Positions 3,674-60,871 of a stretch of DNA of 64,000 nt are shown here, piece by piece. Under the pieces are notes generated by a model that worked only from the letters and a program-made list of their open reading frames with translations, had not been told where the DNA came from and searched no databases. The translations under genes were made by a program, and so were the position numbers. The stretch comes from Escherichia coli (GTDB lineage: Bacteria > Pseudomonadota > Gammaproteobacteria > Enterobacterales > Enterobacteriaceae): assembly GCF_041886205.1 (NCBI RefSeq), contig NZ_CP169031.1; one strand, written 5' to 3'. Positions within the stretch are counted from its first letter, which is position 1; every line of letters begins with the position of its first letter.

Positions 3674-5401
3674 TTGTGTTTAAGGAAGAGTAAATTGAGT
3701 AACTTACGCGAATACCAGAATCGTATTGCAGATATCGCAAAACGCTCTAAAGCTGTGCTTGGCTGGGCAAGCACTGCGCAGTTCGGTACTGATAACCAAT
3801 TCATTAAAGATGATGCCGCGCGTGCCGCATCTATCCTTGAAGCTGCACGTAAAGACCCGGTTTTTGCGGGTATCTCTGATAATGCCACCGCTCAAATCGC
3901 TACAGCGTGGGCAAGTGCACTGGCTGACTACGCCGCAGCACATAAATCTATGCCGCGTCCGGAAATTCTGGCCTCCTGCCACCAGACGCTGGAAAACTGC
4001 CTGATTGAGTCCACCCGCAATAGCATGGATGCCACTAATAAAGCGATGCTGGAATCCGTCGCAGCAGAGATGATGAGCGTTTCTGACGGTGTTATGCGTC
4101 TGCCTTTATTCCTCGCGATGATCCTGCCTGTTCAGTTGGGGGCCGCTACCGCTGATGCGTGTACCTTCATTCCGGTTACGCGTGACCAGTCAGACATCTA
4201 TGAAGTCTTTAACGTGGCAGGTTCCTCTTTTGGTTCTTATGCTGCTGGTGATGTTCTGGACATGCAATCCGTCGGGGTGTACAGCCAGTTACGCCGCCGC
4301 TATGTGCTGGTGGCAAGCTCCGATGGCACCAGCAAAACCGCAACCTTCAAGATGGAAGACTTCGAAGGCCAGAATGTACCAATCCGAAAAGGTCGTACTA
4401 ACATCTACGTTAACCGTATTAAGTCTGTTGTTGATAACGGTTCCGGCAGCCTACTTCACTCGTTTACTAATGCTGCTGGTGAGCAAATCACTGTTACCTG
4501 CTCTCTGAACTACAACATTGGTCAGATTGCCCTGTCGTTCTCCAAAGCGCCGGATAAAGGCACTGAGATCGCAATTGAGACGGAAATCAATATTGAAGCC
4601 GCTCCTGAGCTGATCCCGCTGATCAACCACGAAATGAAGAAATACACCCTGTTCCCAAGCCAGTTCGTTATCGCGGCTGAGCACACGGTACAGGCGGCGT
4701 ATGAAGCACAGCGTGAATTTGGTCTGGACCTGGGTTCCCTACAGTTCCGCACCCTGAAGGAATACCTGTCTCATGAACAGGATATGCTGCGTCTTCGCAT
4801 CATGATCTGGCGTACTCTTGCGACCGACACCTTTGACATCGCTCTGCCGGTTAACCAGTCCTTTGATGTATGGGCAACCATCATTCGTGGCAAATTCCAG
4901 ACTGTATATCGCGACATTATTGAGCGCGTTAAATCTTCTGGTGCGATGGGGATGTTTGCTGGTGCTGATGCAGCATCTTTCTTCAAACAGTTGCCGAAGG
5001 ATTTCTTCCAGCCAGCCGAAGACTATATCCAGACTCCGTATGTTCACTACATCGGTACCCTGTTCGGTAACGTGAAAGTGTACGAAGTACCTGCTGGTAT
5101 TTGTAAGAACTTAACGACAGAGAACATTCAGTTCAGCTCGATGGATGTGCTGTGCTACGTCCGTGATGAAAATCCGGGTAAAGCAGGCTTCGTGACTGGT
5201 GATGCTGTCCCGGCTATCCCGTTCCAGCATCCGACCACTCCGGCGCTGGTCAACCGTACCACACTGTGGGGTTCGGCTATCAACGATATGCACCCACGCA
5301 ACGGCGCTGATTACTTCACTCGTGTAACGCTGACAATGGCCAAAAAAGGCGGGCTTAACTTCATTAGCGGCGACACGATTGATGCCGGTGACTCTGAGTA
5401 A
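3674..5401 (+). CDS. Putative major head protein precursor (P1 gene 23-like)
   Basis: 575-aa ORF, first gene after parS and preceded by a late-promoter-like element. The track start is TTG; an in-frame TTG at 3695 has a better RBS (aaggaag). Confidence 0.5.
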   Translation: MCLRKSKLSNLREYQNRIADIAKRSKAVLGWASTAQFGTDNQFIKDDAARAASILEAARKDPVFAGISDNATAQIATAWASALADYAAAHKSMPRPEILASCHQTLENCLIESTRNSMDATNKAMLESVAAEMMSVSDGVMRLPLFLAMILPVQLGAATADACTFIPVTRDQSDIYEVFNVAGSSFGSYAAGDVLDMQSVGVYSQLRRRYVLVASSDGTSKTATFKMEDFEGQNVPIRKGRTNIYVNRIKSVVDNGSGSLLHSFTNAAGEQITVTCSLNYNIGQIALSFSKAPDKGTEIAIETEINIEAAPELIPLINHEMKKYTLFPSQFVIAAEHTVQAAYEAQREFGLDLGSLQFRTLKEYLSHEQDMLRLRIMIWRTLATDTFDIALPVNQSFDVWATIIRGKFQTVYRDIIERVKSSGAMGMFAGADAASFFKQLPKDFFQPAEDYIQTPYVHYIGTLFGNVKVYEVPAGICKNLTTENIQFSSMDVLCYVRDENPGKAGFVTGDAVPAIPFQHPTTPALVNRTTLWGSAINDMHPRNGADYFTRVTLTMAKKGGLNFISGDTIDAGDSE

Positions 5402-5461
5402 TCAGGGGAAGTTCTCCGTTTAACATAGCGCCCCCGTGCGGGGCGCATAACAGGGAAAGTT

Positions 5462-9782: not shown

Positions 9783-10070
9783 CAGTAAAATTCCTTGCTC
9801 CTTAAAAGGGGAGAGGGTTAATCTAGATATGCTAAGCATGGATATGGCCTCAGATTAATGTTAAGCGTCTTGCAGGACGCGTAATGTTATCTGGGGCTTT
9901 CTTCTGTTATTTGTTTGAGTGCTAGGCAGCAAAGAGAGCTAGCATTCATCAGGCAAATCTATCAATAAATAGCGTTAGTTTTTGTTGTGTGTATGTTTCT
10001 TTATTGTTATTGTGTTGTTTGTTTTTTGGACAACGCAATTCCTATAATCTATAGAATAAAGGAAGTATAT

Positions 10071-10358
10071 ATGGCTGATGTACGCATTACTTGCATTACC
10101 CTCTCCGGCTCGCAATCAATCCATGAGCATATTACTCATGTGGGAAGTCCTCAATTTAATACTAGCAATGGGAAATGGACTGTTGAGCAGGTAATTAATG
10201 CTATTGATAATAATCTCCATACATTCTATGTAACAGATAATGCAGGTAATCGTGTAGACGTTGGGGTTGTTAATCCTGGTAATGGTGGAAGGCAGTTTAT
10301 TAGAACGTATGCAGACAATCGATGGAATAATAATTTACTATCGCTACCAGTCTGTTAA
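10071..10358 (+). CDS. Small DUF3892-like protein
   Basis: 95 aa from MADVRITCI..., with an aaggaag RBS 5 nt upstream. The pattern ITHV...W...FYVTD...V.VV...G..FIRT..D...NNLLSLPVC matches my recollection of DUF3892 proteins. AT-rich leader. Confidence 0.4.
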   Translation: MADVRITCITLSGSQSIHEHITHVGSPQFNTSNGKWTVEQVINAIDNNLHTFYVTDNAGNRVDVGVVNPGNGGRQFIRTYADNRWNNNLLSLPVC

Positions 10359-10365
10359 TGTAATT

Positions 10366-10404
10366 TTATAAAAAAGGCTGCAACCTCTGTTGCAGCCTTT
10401 TTTT
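10366..10404. terminator. Bidirectional rho-independent terminator
   Basis: A-run, then ggctgcaac-ctct-gttgcagcc, then T-run, between the convergent DUF3892-like and ParA-like genes. Confidence 0.6.
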
Positions 10405-10428
10405 AGCCATTATGAGTGAGATAAGCCA

Positions 10429-11439
10429 CTATAAACTCTGAACAAGACGTTCGATTGCTGCACCATATCTTTCTAATGGTTCATTATTGATTTGTGGCTC
10501 AGTATCATGGATCTGATATCTGCCTGGTTTTATATCAAATAGAGGTCTTCCTAGATGGGAAGATACTATAGCTACGGAATGGTTATCTGGCACAGTAAAC
10601 GTTTTTAAATTTCCGCCTTGGAACGCTGTTGGTTTATTCGTCCGCAGATTTTCAGCTCTATCCCTGATTTCGTCGAACATTGCCGAAAACGCTTTACTTG
10701 CTCGTTTGTCATACTCTGTCGAACGATTAAAAACTAGAGAATGAATGACAGGAACCGCTAGACCAAACTGTTGACACCGATCGTAAAAGTTAACAGAACG
10801 ATAATCGTTTTGTACTCCAACGCCATAAACCAACTGGCTTAGGTTATCCACTGCTCGAGCCGAAGAACCATCACTTGAGCAAGGTATTATAATTGCATTT
10901 GCTGCTATCAGTGATAGTTCGGTATAGGCAGAGAAACTGGGGTTGCAATCAATAAAGCAAATGGTTTCTTCGATACCTTGTTGTTGTGCACATGCAACAA
11001 GCAAATCTCGTAGCCACAGGTGGATGCTTTTCCATGAGTCAACTGGTAAGTTTACGCTGCTTAACTGATTGATTACTTGCGCCTGAACTTCCAGGCTTGG
11101 GTCGCCTGCAATCAAAAATACATTGTCAGGGACATGTCCGTTAATTTCAGAGACATGAATTAAGAAACTTGTTTCTGAACCGGTAAGCATGTGGGGGCTG
11201 CGAGTTCTTCTGTCAAAGTACCCACCGACAGTTTTTCGTTGTTGAATTAAGCTCGCGAGGTTAGCAGCACCAGTACCGTTACCGCCGAGCAATATTTCAG
11301 ATAAGTTAGCCTGCGGGCACATATCTGCAAAAATAATACGCTTTTCTGGATTTTGCCTTGCGTATTCACAGGCCATAGCGAAAGATAAGTAGGTCTTTCC
11401 TACGCCACCTTTATTATTCCAAATAGCATACGATTTCAT
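10429..11439 (-). CDS. Orphan ParA/MinD-family P-loop ATPase with ~90-aa C-terminal extension
   Basis: Deviant Walker A (NNKGGVGKTY) near the N-terminus; likely start MKSYAIW at 11439 (track ORF extends to 11484). No partner ParB-like gene; separate from parAB at 1255-3428. Confidence 0.6.
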   Translation of the reverse strand: MKSYAIWNNKGGVGKTYLSFAMACEYARQNPEKRIIFADMCPQANLSEILLGGNGTGAANLASLIQQRKTVGGYFDRRTRSPHMLTGSETSFLIHVSEINGHVPDNVFLIAGDPSLEVQAQVINQLSSVNLPVDSWKSIHLWLRDLLVACAQQQGIEETICFIDCNPSFSAYTELSLIAANAIIIPCSSDGSSARAVDNLSQLVYGVGVQNDYRSVNFYDRCQQFGLAVPVIHSLVFNRSTEYDKRASKAFSAMFDEIRDRAENLRTNKPTAFQGGNLKTFTVPDNHSVAIVSSHLGRPLFDIKPGRYQIHDTEPQINNEPLERYGAAIERLVQSL

Positions 11440-12622: not shown

Positions 12623-13423
12623 TTAGCGCGTTGCCGCGACAGGTACCAGCACACCAGCATCAAGCAATCGCTTCATCAGCCACTGCTGACCTTTGCCGGT
12701 TATACGAGTCGTGAAAGAAATCCTGCTTCCATTGCTTGTATCGATCACGGTTTCTTTAAGGGTGAAATACCCACGGGATATGTATTCTTGTTTGGGGACG
12801 TTCCTGCGTTCACCGGTTGCGATCAGAATTCCGTTATCACGCAACCAGGTGAAGAGATAGTTTTGGCCCAGGCCGAGCACTTTGGCATAGTTGCCGATTA
12901 GAACCCCGCTGGCGGTAGCAACGCGTTCGGCGAATTCGACTTTAGGTGCATCCATAAGCATTTTTTGCTCCAGCCGTTGCTTTTGCTCTGCCAGGTCGGC
13001 AGCCAAACGGAGAGCTTCAGGGAGACTCTGCGGAATAGCAGGTTGTAATCTTCCGGCTCGATAGTCGATAAATGTCTGGTTTACCTTCAGCCGAAACGCG
13101 GGAGAAATCCAGCCTGCGTACTCCACTGCGAGCAATTCATGGGCAAAAGTGCCGCCGCCACGGCCTTCGAACGAAACTATGCAATTCTGCATAGTTTCTT
13201 TTTCAAGCTCTTCGATGAGCTGTTTGGCTGACAGCGTTCTTAGCCATTGAGCTGGCGCTTTATGGGCACCGAGTCCACTCGCTTTGTGTAGAGCATTAAG
13301 GTTGTAACGGCCAGCGCGGTCGGTCGTAATTTCAACACCACAAATAACAGGCAGAGTGGTTGAAGGATCGACATTTTGATGAAGGTTTGATATATTCATA
13401 TCCGCATTGAATGTTTGTTGCAT
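12623..13423 (-). CDS. kilA: KilA (KilA-N plus shared KilA-C/ANT domain)
   Basis: 266 aa; the C-terminal ~130 aa are clearly homologous to the Ant C-terminus (IPQSLPEALRLAADLAEQK... versus IPQTLPEALRLAAELAEQK...). Confidence 0.75.
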   Translation of the reverse strand: MQQTFNADMNISNLHQNVDPSTTLPVICGVEITTDRAGRYNLNALHKASGLGAHKAPAQWLRTLSAKQLIEELEKETMQNCIVSFEGRGGGTFAHELLAVEYAGWISPAFRLKVNQTFIDYRAGRLQPAIPQSLPEALRLAADLAEQKQRLEQKMLMDAPKVEFAERVATASGVLIGNYAKVLGLGQNYLFTWLRDNGILIATGERRNVPKQEYISRGYFTLKETVIDTSNGSRISFTTRITGKGQQWLMKRLLDAGVLVPVAATR

Positions 13424-13492: not shown

Positions 13493-13509
13493 AAATTTAT
13501 TAGAGCAAA
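13493..13509. promoter_or_regulatory. C1 operator-like site (aaatttattagagcaaa)
   Basis: Match to the asymmetric 17-bp P1 C1 operator consensus ATTGCTCTAATAAATTT (reverse complement), upstream of kilA-repL. Confidence 0.6.
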
Positions 13510-13587: not shown

Positions 13588-14634
13588 TTAACCTATTGCT
13601 ACTGGTTTTAACAAACCAGCATCAAGTAGCTTGCGAGTTAACCACTGCTGGCCTTTACCCGTTAATTGGGGCGTCAGCCGTATCTGGTAGCCATTTTCAT
13701 CATCCAGCACCACTTCTTTCACCGTGAAATACCCGGCGTTAATGTACTGCTGGCGCGGTACGTTTTTGCGCGCACCAAAAGCCATGAGAATGCCGTTCTG
13801 GCGCAACCATGAGAAAAGGGCGTTTTGCTTAAGTCCAACGACCTTTGCAAAGTTCCCGATCAGGATTCCATTAGCCGCTGATACCCGGTCGGCAAAATCG
13901 ACTTTAGGGGCTGCGGCCACCAGCTGTTGTTCCAACTGCATTTTCTGTTCTGCCAACTCGGCAGCCAGGCGTAGAGCTTCTGGTAATGTTTGGGGGATCG
14001 ATGGGGTAGGGGAGTTTGCCTGCTGCAATTCTTCCAGTTTGTCGATCAGCGAACGGCGGACCGCTTTCGATTCGCGAGCAGCAACGCGCAGGGCTTGTTT
14101 GTATGTCATTACTATAACTACCTGATCCGCTCCACCTTTTTTCTTATCCATAGGGGTTACGAAGATTTCGTAACCCTCCCCATCAAGCTCATCCTTAACT
14201 CTGGCAATGAAATCATTGTTGCGAACTGGTTTTTCGCTACATAATTTCCGTGCCTCATTGACCATCTTTAACAGTGTCAGGCTGTCGATTGTGTCTCCGG
14301 TGTTGGGGATAATATTCACGGCTGGTGCTGGCGTAGCTGACGTAACAGGTGCTGGTTTTTCAACATTCAAATTATTACCGGTCATTCTATGTGCCTCCTT
14401 TCTCATTTCTGCTGCCACTGTTGCGTAACGTAGACGTCCTTGTTCAATCAAATAATCCCTGATCTCGGCTATCAGTAGCCTGTTGATCACAGCCTTATCT
14501 GTTCGGGTATAAAAACGCCTGGTTATCATGAAATAGTTAGCAATTGCGCCGGGGATCTCCCGTGTCGGCATACAGGCAGTATGCAGGGCGATCGCTTCGG
14601 CTATGTCATTACGGGTGACGAGAGGTTTTTTCAT
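13588..14634 (-). CDS. ant1: Antirepressor Ant
   Basis: 348-aa ORF downstream of icd with the ANT/KilA-C C-terminal domain. Confidence 0.75.
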   Translation of the reverse strand: MKKPLVTRNDIAEAIALHTACMPTREIPGAIANYFMITRRFYTRTDKAVINRLLIAEIRDYLIEQGRLRYATVAAEMRKEAHRMTGNNLNVEKPAPVTSATPAPAVNIIPNTGDTIDSLTLLKMVNEARKLCSEKPVRNNDFIARVKDELDGEGYEIFVTPMDKKKGGADQVVIVMTYKQALRVAARESKAVRRSLIDKLEELQQANSPTPSIPQTLPEALRLAAELAEQKMQLEQQLVAAAPKVDFADRVSAANGILIGNFAKVVGLKQNALFSWLRQNGILMAFGARKNVPRQQYINAGYFTVKEVVLDDENGYQIRLTPQLTGKGQQWLTRKLLDAGLLKPVAIG

Positions 14635-14852
14635 AAACCCCCCTGAACGTCGGCAGAGAAGGGGAGGCTCCAGTAACTAAGTGAATTGCGCGAGTTAGTT
14701 GAAAAACGGGCAGTAAAAATGCAGGGGCCATCAGGCAATTGAGAGCGTGCTTCGTCTTCTGTTGCAGCGATAACGAAGTGATAGTGGTGTTTTTTACAGG
14801 AATAGAAACGCCAGATGAATTCTTGGCGTGCGCAAGGATTGGCATTAACCAT
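14631..14852 (-). CDS. icd: Icd (cell division interference protein)
   Basis: 73-aa ORF overlapping the ant start by 4 nt; GAGG RBS 7 nt upstream; immediately downstream of the c4 antisense region. Confidence 0.65.
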   Translation of the reverse strand: MVNANPCARQEFIWRFYSCKKHHYHFVIAATEDEARSQLPDGPCIFTARFSTNSRNSLSYWSLPFSADVQGGL

Positions 14853-15164: not shown

Positions 15165-15181
15165 AAATTTATTAGAGCATT
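15165..15181. promoter_or_regulatory. C1 operator-like site (aaatttattagagcatt)
   Basis: Near-consensus operator at the start of the ImmI operon. Confidence 0.6.
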
Positions 15182-15277
15182 GCTTGTTTAATAAATGCAC
15201 AATTGGATCTAATAACCTCTTTTTTTTAAAGGCGAAAATATGTACCCTAAATGAGTTATAAGGCAGGTGAGGTTATA

Positions 15278-15769
15278 ATGAGAAAACTATTACTACCGTT
15301 ATTATTTATGGCTGGGACTGTTAATGCAGCATCAAGCGTGAAGGAGATTTGTACCGATTATACGAAATACCTTGGGCACGTTTACGGCTTTGCTGTCAGT
15401 CAAGACGAATCCATGCGCAAGAAGTTACTGTCAGATATGAAACGTCTTAAACTTTCTGAAGCGATGGTGCAGCAAGAACTATATAAAGTCGCAACCAACG
15501 AAAATGCTAAATATCAATATTCTCGCCTATTAAATCCCGACGCAAACGAGATCAATCGAAGCACTTTCGATTATATGGTAAAGGCATGCGAAACCGCTCC
15601 TGATTTTGCTATCCCTAGCTGGGGTGTGCTGGTGGCGAGCAATGCCGTTAATAAAGAAGATGTTGGAAGAAATGGCATTGACTCAATAAGAAATGCCCCA
15701 GGAATGCGCCATCAAAACGTACAGGGTACGCTTGAAGAACGAGCCAGGGGGCCGGGTGTAGCCCCATAA
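15278..15769 (+). CDS. Secreted hypothetical protein (Sec signal peptide)
   Basis: Start MRKLLLPLLFMAGTVNA with an AxA cleavage motif; 2 Cys in the mature part; the C-terminus shares a GMR..VQGTLEERARG motif with Sit. AT-rich gene. Confidence 0.55.
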   Translation: MRKLLLPLLFMAGTVNAASSVKEICTDYTKYLGHVYGFAVSQDESMRKKLLSDMKRLKLSEAMVQQELYKVATNENAKYQYSRLLNPDANEINRSTFDYMVKACETAPDFAIPSWGVLVASNAVNKEDVGRNGIDSIRNAPGMRHQNVQGTLEERARGPGVAP

Positions 15770-15857
15770 TTTTATAAATAATATTAAATTCTCTGGGCAT
15801 AGTGGATCTAACAATATGGACTATGCCTATAATATCTAAAAACAAAAGGATAAAAAT

Positions 15858-16364
15858 ATGAAATTGTATAAGTCATTGTATAGCTTTTTATTAATGTCCT
15901 CTTTTCTGCCATTATCAGCAATGGCAGGTTCTACCGTTTGGACGGTAGGAGGTGAGCAAGGGTGGAGAGAAATCTCTGCAACCAATGACGATGGTTACAC
16001 AATTAACTTTTCTTGTGATGCTGGAGCAAGGGAAGGTTCAGAAGATCATATCGCTGGAAGAAATTTGTATGTAAGCGGAGGAAAAGAGAATGCCGATTTT
16101 TCTACACGCGACACAATATCACGTAAAGCAGATGTAATTACTTTAATTGTTGGCCCGGATAGTTTTAATATTGGCACGCAAAACACTGCTCCTAATCGTA
16201 GGGAATGGTATTCATTTTGGAAGGCAGTGTCATCTACAAATGAAAAAAACATAGATGTATATATCGGTTCGAGTCGAATCACATCATTCACTCTGGATGG
16301 TATTTCCAGTATTTATACAGAAGCTAAAAATGACGGGTGTTTAAAACAAGATGACGGTGAATAA
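15858..16364 (+). CDS. Secreted hypothetical protein (Sec signal peptide)
   Basis: N-terminus MKLYKSLYSFLLMSSFLPLSAMA; 168 aa; AT-rich; overlaps the next gene by 14 nt. Confidence 0.55.
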   Translation: MKLYKSLYSFLLMSSFLPLSAMAGSTVWTVGGEQGWREISATNDDGYTINFSCDAGAREGSEDHIAGRNLYVSGGKENADFSTRDTISRKADVITLIVGPDSFNIGTQNTAPNRREWYSFWKAVSSTNEKNIDVYIGSSRITSFTLDGISSIYTEAKNDGCLKQDDGE

Positions 16365-17424
16365 AGTGAAGGATATTAAACACATTTCGCTTAACTCTAA
16401 TAATAAAGCTGAAGGCACTGCCTTTTATGATTATTTAAATGAAATTAAAGGAGTGAGGCATAAAAAGATAAGTGGTTTATTAAATTCAGAATATATTTAC
16501 AAGAGTTTAGTTAAACAGTTTGGAACAGTTAAAAAACAAGAATTAATTAATGATTGTTTTCGAAAAGAACTTGAGTCTTTACCAAAAGTTACGAGAATTG
16601 CACACCAGTTTCGTGAACAAATGGTATTTTTACAGAAACAGTATCAGGCGGCTTTTCCCAGTGATGCAAATGAGCATATTCAAATAATTAAAAATCAAGC
16701 TGAAATGGCTATGCCGTTACGAAAACACTCAGAAGCCATTAATAAGATAGCTGGCTTAAATAATATGGAGGAGGTATTTAAAGAATTACACTCTAATATA
16801 AATTACAAAATTAAGATAAGCAAAGATATTAAAGAAATAATAAAGCAGTATAATAAAACAAGAAGTGTATTATTAGAGCAAGTAGTAGAGCTTGGGCTTG
16901 TTACTATCGCGCAGGCTTATGCTAATGATTCTATAAAATCAGCGCATACCGAAAGTGAGCATCAAAACAAAGGATTTAATAAATCTAGTTCGACGTTTTT
17001 TGATTCATTTAAGGCGCTTCCTTCTCCTATTCAGATCTTCCTTCTGTGGATTTTTTATCAAGTGGTGCTTGGCGCTATAACTGATTATGCAAAAGAAAAG
17101 ACATTATCGCAAATTTACAAGATGGAATCATATCTTCTATCTCTAAATGAGGATAAGCCAATATCTAAGCAAAAGCTAACACAAGAAAATAAAGATATTC
17201 AGTGGGAGGATCTTAATAATTTTAGAGCTATAACAGGTGATAACGTAAGGTTGCATGTCGGCCCTTCTTTAAATAGTGAAGTGATTGAATGCATTGGCAA
17301 AAACACAATTGTTGCTATTTTAGATAAGAAAGATCGTCAATGGCTTTACGTGCAGGTTAAATCAGGGGATGAGTTTATTACTGGTTGGATTACACGAACA
17401 TACACAAAGCCTCTTAAGGCTTGA
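16351..17424 (+). CDS. Membrane protein with C-terminal SH3b-like domain
   Basis: 357 aa; predicted single TM helix (IQIFLLWIFYQVVLGAI); C-terminal RLHVGPSLNSEVI...GWITRTY resembles bacterial SH3b. Lys/Asn-rich, AT-rich codon usage. Confidence 0.55.
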   Translation: MTVNKVKDIKHISLNSNNKAEGTAFYDYLNEIKGVRHKKISGLLNSEYIYKSLVKQFGTVKKQELINDCFRKELESLPKVTRIAHQFREQMVFLQKQYQAAFPSDANEHIQIIKNQAEMAMPLRKHSEAINKIAGLNNMEEVFKELHSNINYKIKISKDIKEIIKQYNKTRSVLLEQVVELGLVTIAQAYANDSIKSAHTESEHQNKGFNKSSSTFFDSFKALPSPIQIFLLWIFYQVVLGAITDYAKEKTLSQIYKMESYLLSLNEDKPISKQKLTQENKDIQWEDLNNFRAITGDNVRLHVGPSLNSEVIECIGKNTIVAILDKKDRQWLYVQVKSGDEFITGWITRTYTKPLKA

Positions 17425-17554
17425 ATTTTATCTCCGCATCTTCGGATTGGGTGTTGATGACGATGTGCTACTTGAAGCACTTGAGTTGTTTTAACGTAGT
17501 ATCTGAAATGTGTAGACTGACCGGTAACAAATGACAACTCGTAGAATCGGTTAA

Positions 17555-18145
<591 letters not shown>

Positions 18146-44513: not shown

Positions 44514-44530
44514 TAAATTAATTAGAGCAA
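44514..44530. promoter_or_regulatory. C1 operator-like site (aaattaattagagcaat)
   Basis: Operator consensus match immediately upstream of ssb. Confidence 0.55.
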
Positions 44531-57328: not shown

Positions 57329-57516
57329 AGCGCCCCTACAAAAAAGAAAAGCCACCAGCGGCGGCTTAGCAATACAACTGAAGGTAGCGCCCGGTACTCA
57401 GACTGTGCCGTCCATGGAATATTTGAAAAGGGATCCATCCGTACCGGGCGTGTGATGATTCTGACTCAAGTCACTTGTCAGTTGTCAATCATTTAAGATT
57501 AAAAATAATATATTTA

Positions 57517-58077
57517 TTAGTGCATAATGTTTGCCATTTCATAGGCGTCAGCCAGCAACTCCATCTCTGACTTGTTCAACAAGGTGAATTCTTTCTTGCC
57601 TCCTACCACGCCATCGGCATGAACAGGGACCAGCCAGGGGTATTTTTCTCTTACTTCAGCCGGTGCTGCATGCTGGTGGTGCCATCTGCAAAGGGGCAAT
57701 TGCTTTTTGTGACAACCCGGCGCGGTACGACCGGAGATATGGTGCAGAGACACCTCTTCAGATATTACTCCATGCATGTAGCAGGCAATGCAGGGGAGAG
57801 TGCCAAGAGCATTGGCGATAGTCTGTTCCTCCTCCGTCGGTGTTCGCCCCTTCAAGCCACGAGATTTTATTTTTACCGCACTTTTCCGCGTTTTGCTGGC
57901 TGGTGGGCGCTCTTTCTGTTTAGCGATACGGCGGTCGATAGAATCCCGCATTTTCTGATATTGCGATTCTCGCCAGGCGGGGTCAGCCAACTTTTCCCGT
58001 TGCCGAGCGATCGCTCGTTCTCTGGCTGCCTTCTGCCACTCGCGGCGCTGTTCAAGTTTTTGTTCGATTGTTTTCAT
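57517..58077 (-). CDS. ref: Ref recombination enhancement function (HNH endonuclease)
   Basis: 186 aa from MKTIEQK; C-terminal HNH-like Cys/His cluster (CIACYMHG...HHISG...CHKKQ...CRWHH); C1 operator-like site upstream. Confidence 0.75.
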   Translation of the reverse strand: MKTIEQKLEQRREWQKAARERAIARQREKLADPAWRESQYQKMRDSIDRRIAKQKERPPASKTRKSAVKIKSRGLKGRTPTEEEQTIANALGTLPCIACYMHGVISEEVSLHHISGRTAPGCHKKQLPLCRWHHQHAAPAEVREKYPWLVPVHADGVVGGKKEFTLLNKSEMELLADAYEMANIMH

Positions 58078-60213: not shown

Positions 60214-60230
60214 ATAATTATTAGAGCAAT
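60214..60230. promoter_or_regulatory. C1 operator-like site (ataattattagagcaat)
   Basis: Consensus match between loxP and coi. Confidence 0.55.
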
Positions 60231-60296: not shown

Positions 60297-60313
60297 ATTG
60301 CTCTAATAAATTA
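60297..60313. promoter_or_regulatory. C1 operator-like site (attgctctaataaatta)
   Basis: Near-perfect consensus in the opposite orientation to the 60214 site; preceded by ttgaca. Confidence 0.6.
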
Positions 60314-60761: not shown

Positions 60762-60871
60762 ATGCACTAATAAATCTATTATTTTCGTTGGATCCTTCTA
60801 TAATGGTGGCCAACAACTCCCAGTGTAATCCGCTGTGAGTTGTTGGCCATGTCAATTCTGGAGGAGGATCA

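Follow-up and report, generated by a model that had tools for sequence, protein, structure and literature searches.

The stretch of Escherichia coli DNA analysed here (64,000 nucleotides of contig NZ_CP169031.1, assembly GCF_041886205.1; hereafter the window) belongs to a P1-like phage or phage-plasmid, as judged by comparison with annotated P1, P7 and Ro157c2YLVW. Its sim slot carries a cassette of three open reading frames (ORFs), the first of which encodes a SimA-like protein with a C-terminal tail similar to a segment of Sit, the tape-measure/injection transglycosylase of the same element. ORF2 encodes a member of the YfjT/YkfB family and ORF3 a protein with an SH3b domain and a single predicted transmembrane helix. 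We tentatively propose that the cassette acts in superinfection exclusion at the level of the cell envelope, aimed at Sit-dependent entry. A more specific version, in which the tail of the SimA-like protein would imitate the Sit segment and titrate a partner of incoming Sit, so that exclusion would work by target mimicry, is put forward as an unlikely but concrete candidate.

The tail of ORF1 resembles a segment of Sit

ORF1 lies at 15278..15769 on the plus strand and encodes 163 residues, or 172 if translation were to start at 15251. The ATG at 15278 has the better Shine–Dalgarno sequence (GGTGAGG) and is probably the start codon, giving the N-terminus MRKLLLPLLFMAGTVNA. The protein consists of a predicted signal peptide (residues 1–17), a helical bundle (residues 18–120) and a floppy tail (residues 121–163). 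The AlphaFold2 (AF2) model has a predicted local distance difference test (pLDDT) score of 82, with helices spanning residues 21–120 and a pLDDT of about 56–59 in the tail. Exactly two Cys residues, Cys25 and Cys104, follow the signal peptide; both are invariant in the family and the bundle is likely to contain one disulfide.

The tail (15638..15766, plus strand; containing ...NAVNKEDVGRNGIDSIRNAPGMRHQNVQGTLEERARGPGVAP) is similar in sequence to part of Sit. Residues 121–162 of ORF1 align with residues 921–957 of the window's own Sit (blastp, E = 7e-8; 51% identity across 41 residues, with the run VQGTLEERARG among them), and the PHROG profile of Sit, phrog_2533, matches the tail with an E-value of 2.8e-5 against 38,880 families. 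The Smith–Waterman alignment of the two has a z-score of 9.9 and none of 2000 shuffles scored as high. When the SimA-like protein was compared with the Sit of its own element in four elements, the window and three others, the z-scores were 9.4–13.6 and the score was again reached by none of 2000 shuffles; at locus L014, for example, the shared segment reads EEFQNSRSMRHQQVEGSLMERARGLGTNSIRGNLSP against DKFMNSRGMRHEVVQGTLAERAYGKGTTTSMGNVSP. At the DNA level the best match between the ORF1 tail and sit is 18 of 20 nucleotides, which confines the likeness to the protein level and argues that the tail is not a recent copy of Sit. The core N-x-x-G-M-R-x-Q is present in nearly all SimA-like proteins, even where the remaining tail has been replaced.

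In Sit, the segment shared with the ORF1 tail (residues 921–957; 22505..22615, plus strand) lies 74 residues after the SLT domain (residues 742–847), and its conservation across 17 classical P1-type phage records is 100%. A second, more degenerate copy of the motif, with which the ORF1 tail aligns more weakly, is found at residues 977–1011 (...IDGLFDKLRNSPGMRKNNV; 22673..22777, plus strand). The G-M-R segment occurs twice in tandem in classical P1-type Sit and once in the Sit proteins examined from P1-like elements of Salmonella, Klebsiella and metagenomes. The similarity between SimA-like proteins and Sit is not mentioned in the literature searched; P1 itself could not have revealed it, since P1 simA lacks the tail.

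Comparison with the P1 sim genes

The borders and orientation of the cassette are those of simABC in the alignment to annotated P1. An earlier note, made from the DNA letters alone, had placed three genes in the sim slot next to ImmI and had suspected that a different module had been swapped in. The placement is borne out by alignment to P1 and P7, which puts the C1 operator at 15165–15181 on one side and the late promoter LPsit at 17527–17547 on the other. The suspected swap applies to ORF2 and ORF3, which are unlike SimB and SimC, and does not apply to ORF1, which is a SimA homologue: its residues 1–50 are 94% identical to P1 SimA (blastp, E = 6e-33), a protein of 52 residues. In the comparison of ORF1–ORF3 with SimB and SimC no homologue was found (best blastp E = 0.28), and high identity to the P1 sim proteins is thus seen at the N-terminus of ORF1 only and not across all three ORFs. 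ORF2 and ORF3 have no similarity to P7 proteins, and ORF3 has no counterpart in P1, P7 or Ro157c2YLVW.

P1 SimA ends after 52 residues while ORF1 and Ro157c2YLVW gp35 (215 residues; 98% identity to ORF1 over 161 residues) continue, which makes P1 simA a relic; the alignments are consistent with its having been truncated when simB–simC came in. Among PLSDB plasmids, 126 encode at least 80% of ORF1 and 141 more match only the ~48-residue SimA stump. Plasmids with SimC also number 141, an agreement of totals rather than of matched records.

The homology of ORF1 to the Ro157c2YLVW gene ends at 15757, 12 nucleotides short of the present stop codon, at a G+C-rich hairpin with a T-run (15748..15765, plus strand) located at the 3' end of ORF1. 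The truncated form is common to the three cassette copies that were read as protein (the window, pSBF45b and a bladder-isolate plasmid). ORF1 matches phrog_3933, which has no assigned function (E = 2e-114), and the SimA-like family is confined to P1-like elements, namely those of Escherichia, Salmonella, Klebsiella and Cronobacter, with frameshifted variants present in metagenomic clusters. A sequence search of the PDB with ORF1 returned nothing significant. A Pfam match to PTP-like phytase (PF14566) was discounted, as the catalytic HCx5R P-loop is missing and the match has no structural support. Ro157c2YLVW gp35 ends in ...LPYEW and the unrelated P7 protein Upf50.0 in ...SSWW; both are predicted to be exported and share an aromatic C-terminus, which may be coincidence.

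ORF2 belongs to the YfjT/YkfB family

ORF2 (15858..16364, plus strand) encodes a predicted periplasmic protein of 168 residues with a signal peptide at residues 1–23 (N-terminus MKLYKSLYSFLLMSSFLPLSAMA). Like ORF1, it had been described in the earlier note as a small protein with a signal peptide and two Cys residues in its mature part, and the quoted peptides and both pairs of Cys residues are indeed present. The pair in ORF2, Cys53 and Cys161, comprises the only Cys residues after the signal peptide and is likely to form one disulfide; with Trp28, Gly35 and Trp117 these residues are invariant in the family (14 sequences, with identity down to 21%).

The close and distant homologues of ORF2 carry the precomputed annotation PF27224:YfjT, and the RefSeq name of the family is 'YfjT/YkfB family phage-associated protein'. 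ORF2 itself has no match in the copy of Pfam used, which presumably predates PF27224. It matches E. coli K-12 YkfB with an hhalign probability of 99.2% (E = 9e-20) and phrog_3429 with an E-value of 2e-71. The AF2 model (pLDDT of 83) has a β-rich domain and one long helix. Its sole structural echo is a weak IalB-like one with marginal scores; the Foldseek matches in AFDB50 are mostly uncharacterised proteins and a sequence search of the PDB gave nothing significant. The titles and abstract openings of the literature that mentions YfjT contain no functional study of YfjT or E. coli YkfB; one of these papers is, by its title and opening, a revisiting of the E. coli y-ome.

Upstream of ORF2 there is a perfect TATAAT at about 15829–15834, without a good −35 element. 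Together with the hairpin at 15748–15765 it suggests that ORF2–ORF3 may have their own transcription signals. A relationship between SimA-like proteins and the YfjS/YafY lipoproteins that precede the YfjT-family genes of K-12 was rejected (hhalign probability of 0.2%). In the F128 copy of K-12 CP4-6 (L017, 1799–2959), ypjK, yafY (encoding a YfjS/YafY lipoprotein) and ykfB form a tight trio, where the YfjT family again adjoins a small exported partner, here in a cryptic prophage. The YfjT-family genes at loci L006, L007 and L008 have small membrane-protein genes just upstream.

ORF3 is a variable protein with a conserved SH3b domain

ORF3 (16351..17424, plus strand) encodes 357 residues. With the ATG at 16351 it overlaps ORF2 by 14 nucleotides, as stated in the earlier note; with the alternative GTG at 16366, which has a better-spaced GGTGA and is used in some RefSeq annotations, the overlap gives way to a 1-nucleotide gap. 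The protein comprises a variable helical N-terminal part (residues 1–226), a transmembrane helix (residues 227–244; IQIFLLWIFYQVVLGAIT; 17029..17082, plus strand), a conserved linker of ~50 residues and the SH3b domain (SH3_3; 17239..17403, plus strand), which is nearly invariant across the family. The single transmembrane helix and the C-terminal SH3b-like domain had both been anticipated. The former corresponds to the only hydropathy peak (Kyte–Doolittle value of 1.75 over 19 residues, within residues 225–244) and is conserved in the family alignment; the latter matches Pfam SH3_3 (PF08239) at residues 297–351 (E = 6.2e-6, model positions 1–52 of 54), a domain that is also precomputed on nearly all ORF3 homologues. 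As ORF3 has no signal peptide and 226 residues precede the helix, its topology is most likely N-in/C-out, with the SH3b domain in the periplasm and probably on the peptidoglycan; the charges flanking the helix are not decisive.

ORF3 matches phrog_7086 (E = 1e-225). The C-terminus is also matched by phrog_1794, an SH3b-containing phage amidase (E = 4e-5), and phrog_23259 has only the transmembrane, linker and SH3b half in common with ORF3. The family comprises ~42 clusters, nearly all of them on ~95 kb contigs. Its N-terminal part is hypervariable and rich in helical repeats, with tandem repeats of 13 or 19 residues that vary in number. Internal repeats in the window's own ORF3 score no better than shuffles (36 against a shuffle maximum of 36). 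The family profile returned nothing significant from the PDB: it missed the SH3b domain and, for the N-terminal part, brought up generic helical repeats only. In a homologue of 481 residues from a Citrobacter freundii plasmid (L010, NZ_CP056338.1, 2984–4429), the conserved part that runs from the transmembrane helix to the SH3b domain is preceded by a 19-residue repeat (GSTIADSVSLSERMTKLAQ) in about nine tandem copies. A terminator-like hairpin (17407..17422, plus strand) overlaps the stop codon of ORF3.

The cassette combines a recurrent pair with a separate third gene

The window and Ro157c2YLVW share the order SimA-like gene, YfjT-family gene and pmgC–tub–pmgB–sit with five divergent P1-like elements from Salmonella, Klebsiella and a metagenome, the SimA-like proteins of which are 51–80% identical. 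Two YfjT genes that had been called short read through to full length on inspection. In one element a 117-residue protein with three transmembrane helices is intercalated, and a protein of this kind replaces the SimA-like protein in pEC13-3 and in a chromosomally integrated copy. Genes for proteins of 116–117 residues with three predicted transmembrane helices lie at L009 2433–2783, L014 10768–11121 and L018 3860–4210, either in place of the SimA-like gene or between the SimA-like and YfjT-like genes.

Among PLSDB plasmids, 623 have the conserved flanks, 194 a YfjT-like gene and 64 an ORF3-like gene, and ORF3 is present in about 10% of P1-like plasmids. Judging from the synteny across elements and from the separate occurrence of ORF3, which stands alone in an unrelated plasmid context, the cassette is a recurrent SimA-like/YfjT-like pair with an independently mobile ORF3. 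The three genes described in the earlier note thus do not form an inseparable module.

Selection on the cassette

Selection was assessed by comparing the window cassette with that of pSBF45b, using the ratio of nonsynonymous to synonymous divergence (ω) and the synonymous divergence (dS). The value of ω is 0.06 for ORF1 (dS of 0.13), 0.07 for ORF2 (dS of 0.31) and 0.09 for the SH3b domain of ORF3 (dS of 0.08), much like the 0.08 of the backbone gene pmgC. Such strong purifying selection argues that ORF1, in its shortened form, and ORF2 are functional. The N-terminal part of ORF3 has an ω of 0.54 at a dS of 0.74, with insertions and deletions, and the nucleotide identity is 33–78% between 16300 and 17250, compared with at least 87% on both sides. 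This pattern of divergence marks the N-terminal half of ORF3 as a hotspot of allele swapping or diversification, which is what a specificity determinant would be expected to show.

This result bears on the possibility that the genes are decaying remnants without function. ORF1 is shortened relative to the 215-residue form, P1 keeps just a 52-residue stump and frameshifted variants exist, yet an ω of 0.06–0.09 for ORF1, ORF2 and the SH3b domain at synonymous divergences of 0.08–0.31, and the retention of the same truncated ORF1 in three cassette copies, make decay very improbable.

The slot and its surroundings

The left border of the variable slot is the C1 repressor operator (15165..15181), the Op51 equivalent, which is an exact 15-mer match and aligns with the annotated Oc4 of P1; the c4–icd–ant promoters fire leftwards from it. 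The right border is LPsit (17527..17547, plus strand), with a −22 box and TAGAAT as placed by alignment to annotated P1 and P7, at the start of the pmgC–tub–pmgB–sit operon. The homology to P7 ends directly after the operator and picks up again just before LPsit, which delimits a replaceable slot of approximately 15182–17526. As had been noticed by eye, the GC content of the slot is markedly lower than that of its surroundings (0.363 for 15183–17524 against 0.482 for the whole window). It is the lowest-GC stretch of such size in the window: only two of 617 equally long segments have a GC content as low, and both lie within the cassette region. For P1-like phage-plasmids, simABC has been described as a 'highly variable region' of low GC content (PMC9603915).

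The 5' region of the cassette is 94–100% identical to that of P1 and includes a predicted σ70 promoter equivalent to PsimA (15187..15213, plus strand), the coordinates of which were transferred from the P1 annotation. To the left of the slot, kilA (12623–13423), ant1 (13588–14634) and icd (14631–14852), followed by the c4 region, are on the minus strand; to the right, pmgC (17579–18145), tub, pmgB and sit (19745–23119) are on the plus strand.

The occupants of the slot differ between elements: simABC in P1, upf50.5/upf50.0 in P7 and gp35/gp34 in Ro157c2YLVW. P7-type cassettes (DUF5384) are found in about 200 plasmids; Upf50.5 is a lipoprotein and Upf50.0 has a signal peptide. All of the cassettes seen in the slot (SimA/SimB/SimC, the P7 and Ro157c2YLVW pairs, the protein with three transmembrane helices and the window module) encode predicted exported or membrane proteins. 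In pRHB25-C13_2 (L005, CP057476.1) a gene for a 320-residue DUF4760 membrane protein lies between ORF3 and LPsit (4445–5407, minus strand) in an otherwise identical cassette, which suggests that the slot collects cargo. The chromosome of E. coli 06-00048 (L018, 1819357–1830174) contains an integrated P1-like immunity/sim-slot fragment with kilA, ant, icd, the protein with three transmembrane helices, a YfjT-like gene and an SH3b protein, joined to unrelated tail-fibre genes.

Sites resembling the C1 operator (AAATTTATTAGAGCA, at most two mismatches) occur seven times in the window, with 0.18 expected by chance: at 13493–13507, 15165–15179, 44515–44529, 57510–57524, 60214–60228, 60299–60313 (minus strand) and 60763–60777 (minus strand). 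Of these, the site at 13493–13507 is the counterpart of P1 Op53, which lies upstream of kilA, and that at 15165–15179 is the counterpart of Op51. Other low-GC stretches at 10000–10600 (0.36, upstream of the lytic replicon region) and 21000–22000 (0.40–0.42, inside sit) suggest further mosaic segments.

Possible function of the cassette

The proposal of envelope-level exclusion draws on the position in the sim slot, on the export predicted for the products of each cassette seen in it, on the fact that sim can be dispensed with and on the Sit-derived tail. P1 sim carries the annotation superimmunity, and lytic growth does not require these genes (PMC10695390). We envisage an envelope-protein cargo cassette in a variable slot that would be expressed from the prophage and would block superinfecting P1-like phages after adsorption, at the Sit-dependent periplasmic stage of entry. 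The SimA-like tail, displayed in the periplasm of the lysogen, would serve as a decoy for the conserved 40-residue segment of Sit that follows the SLT domain. It would occupy the partner of that segment, which might be a host envelope protein, a part of Sit such as the SLT domain or the YfjT-like protein, and with the partner occupied either wall penetration or channel assembly would fail. Constant linkage to the SimA-like protein makes the YfjT-like protein a plausible partner or co-factor. ORF3 would act separately at the inner membrane, tethered to the wall, with its variable helical N-terminus in the cytoplasm. Inhibition of the SLT domain of Sit by the cassette would be pure conjecture, drawn from analogy, and no fold likeness to lysozyme or transglycosylase inhibitors (Ivy, MliC/PliC, PliG/PliI and T4 Spackle) was found.

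Several observations weigh against this proposal. The search of known anti-phage defence systems (PADLOC-DB 2.0) gave no match except a chance one to MTase_II (E = 0.036), NCBIfam gave no informative match for the cassette proteins and we know of no phenotype for any of the three families. P1 Sim is reported to have caused exclusion only when expressed from multicopy clones. The predicted PsimA equivalent abuts the C1 operator and its position was not called in our own consensus promoter scan. ORF1 stops ~52 residues short of the full-length form, and many SimA-like proteins have only the GMRxQ core followed by an unrelated Cys-containing tail. Element-by-element co-variation of the SimA tail with Sit is not claimed, as the identity matrix has no clear diagonal; the instances of it are anecdotal (LEERARG in both proteins of the window, G-x-G-V at L015 and NSR-x-MRH...GN-x-SP at L014). 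YfjT-family genes also occur in a jumbo lytic phage and in two cryptic prophages, CP4-6 and CP4-57, and in CP4-6, the sole such context inspected, the gene has no SimA-like partner. The ORF3-like gene of Citrobacter stands alone, between VRR-NUC and HNH genes on a plasmid that is not P1-like, which implies that the three genes need not cooperate.

The most serious competitor is that the cassette is lysogenic-conversion cargo unrelated to phages, altering the envelope of the host to the lysogen's advantage, for example in tolerance of envelope stress or in immunity to peptidoglycan-targeting toxins, colicins or T6SS (type VI secretion system) amidases; the Sit-like tail would then be an evolutionary leftover of the origin of the gene. 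All three products are predicted envelope proteins, the YfjT family occurs beside lipoprotein genes in CP4-6 and CP4-57, elements that no longer make phage, and the low GC content agrees with the known cargo character of the variable region (PMC9603915). A leftover is harder to reconcile with the retention of the Sit-like core across SimA-like proteins that are only 51–60% identical, which argues that the core is under selection rather than decaying, and with the confinement of the SimA-like family to P1-like elements, always beside the immunity and tail/sit genes. We regard this explanation as unlikely.

The three genes might instead be unrelated neighbours, with ORF3 a stand-alone membrane-anchored defence or abortive-infection sensor and ORF1 and ORF2 doing something else. 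The variable cytoplasmic repeats of ORF3 would recognise phage components at the injection site and the SH3b domain would merely tether the protein to the wall. Its distribution agrees with such a role: ORF3-like genes occur without ORF1 and ORF2 in the Citrobacter plasmid and behind a different first gene in pEC13-3, and 64 PLSDB plasmids have ORF3 against 194 with a YfjT-like gene. So does its architecture, in which a hypervariable N-terminal island with changing repeat number is attached to a conserved transmembrane helix, linker and SH3b domain, the only half shared with phrog_23259. However, searches of NCBIfam, PADLOC, Pfam and the PDB found no effector domain (nuclease, protease or pore), the tight ORF2/ORF3 junction, whether a 14-nucleotide overlap or a 1-nucleotide gap, suggests co-expression, and the membrane topology that the role presupposes is itself a prediction. 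A sensor of this kind appears quite unlikely.

A role in the lytic cycle is improbable. The cassette might tune cell-wall breakdown or the timing of lysis, or it might neutralise periplasmic Sit so that progeny virions are spared the loss of their DNA into the lysing cell or debris. Its position directly before the tail-tube/sit late operon would suit such a role, as would the presence of both a Sit-like peptide and a wall-binding SH3b domain and the match of the ORF3 C-terminus to the amidase family phrog_1794. Against this, the cassette is outside the late transcription unit, since LPsit lies downstream, and it has no enzymatic domain. The slot is wholly replaced in P7-type elements, which grow normally, and knock-downs of P1 simABC were without effect on plating (PMC10695390).

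Relation to known systems

The cassette shares with P1 simABC its slot, orientation and upstream region and the predicted export of all products; it differs in that SimB and SimC are absent, and neither the helical domain nor the Sit-like tail is present in the P1 SimA stump. Exclusion in P1 is credited to SimC, and to our knowledge the mechanism of this exclusion has never been worked out. The Ro157c2YLVW cassette, in the same slot, is closer in that gp35 is the near-identical counterpart of ORF1 and ORF2 has a YfjT-family homologue in gp34 (29% identity, E = 5e-24). In contrast to the window cassette, gp35 is full length with an extra coiled C-terminus, gp34 is of a different YfjT-family subtype from ORF2 and there is no ORF3. 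K-12 YfjT and YkfB have the signal peptide and the invariant Trp, Gly, Cys, Trp and Cys residues in common with ORF2, whereas their upstream partner is a YfjS/YafY lipoprotein and not a SimA-like protein. Little can be drawn from the likeness of ORF2 to Bartonella IalB: the scores are marginal, and what IalB does biochemically is unclear too.

The proposed logic has precedents. HK97 gp15 is an envelope-located, prophage-encoded exclusion protein that acts on the tape-measure protein. P22 SieA is an exclusion protein acting on ejection proteins (PMC10461980), TP-J34 Ltp is cited as excluding via the tape-measure protein (in PMC3952083) and SNIPE is a defence that acts on injected tape-measure or ejection proteins (PMC13190303). 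Like the function proposed here, these systems are located in the envelope, are mostly prophage-encoded and stop DNA entry. The likeness is one of description rather than of direct comparison, and no similarity in sequence or fold was found. We know of no protein of the Ltp, gp15, SieA or SNIPE type that has been described as carrying a copy of its target segment, nor of any earlier description of superinfection exclusion by target mimicry, which would thus be a new twist.

T4 offers a further parallel. Spackle (Sp) is periplasmic and neutralises the gp5 lysozyme of the incoming tail, and Imm is a membrane protein that blocks DNA transfer. By analogy, ORF1/ORF2 together with ORF3 may form a comparable two-compartment layout opposite Sit, a tail-borne lytic transglycosylase. 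The resemblance is one of layout, and we know of no homology behind it; T4 is also a lytic phage, in contrast to the prophage cargo considered here.

Implications

As a phage, P1 is a textbook example, and P1-like phage-plasmids are frequent vehicles for resistance genes in Enterobacteriaceae. The cassette is already in databases as hypothetical proteins, the alternative slot cassettes are likewise all annotated as 'hypothetical' and the slot is known to be variable. The present analysis reorders this picture: the SimA-like/YfjT-like pair is recurrent, P1 simA is a relic and the SH3b protein is a separate mobile add-on. It also places yfjT and ykfB, two uncharacterised genes of E. coli K-12, in a phage-envelope context. 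The parts worth experiment are this link and the segment shared by SimA-like proteins and Sit. The latter gives a specific target, 40 residues of the tape-measure/injection transglycosylase, that can be tested with a few constructs. Should the mimicry idea fail, there would still be a tidy account of a recombination hotspot, the variability of which has been flagged in the literature before. If it is true, mimicry would offer a first way into the function of the y-ome genes yfjT and ykfB and into the working of the P1 sim slot.

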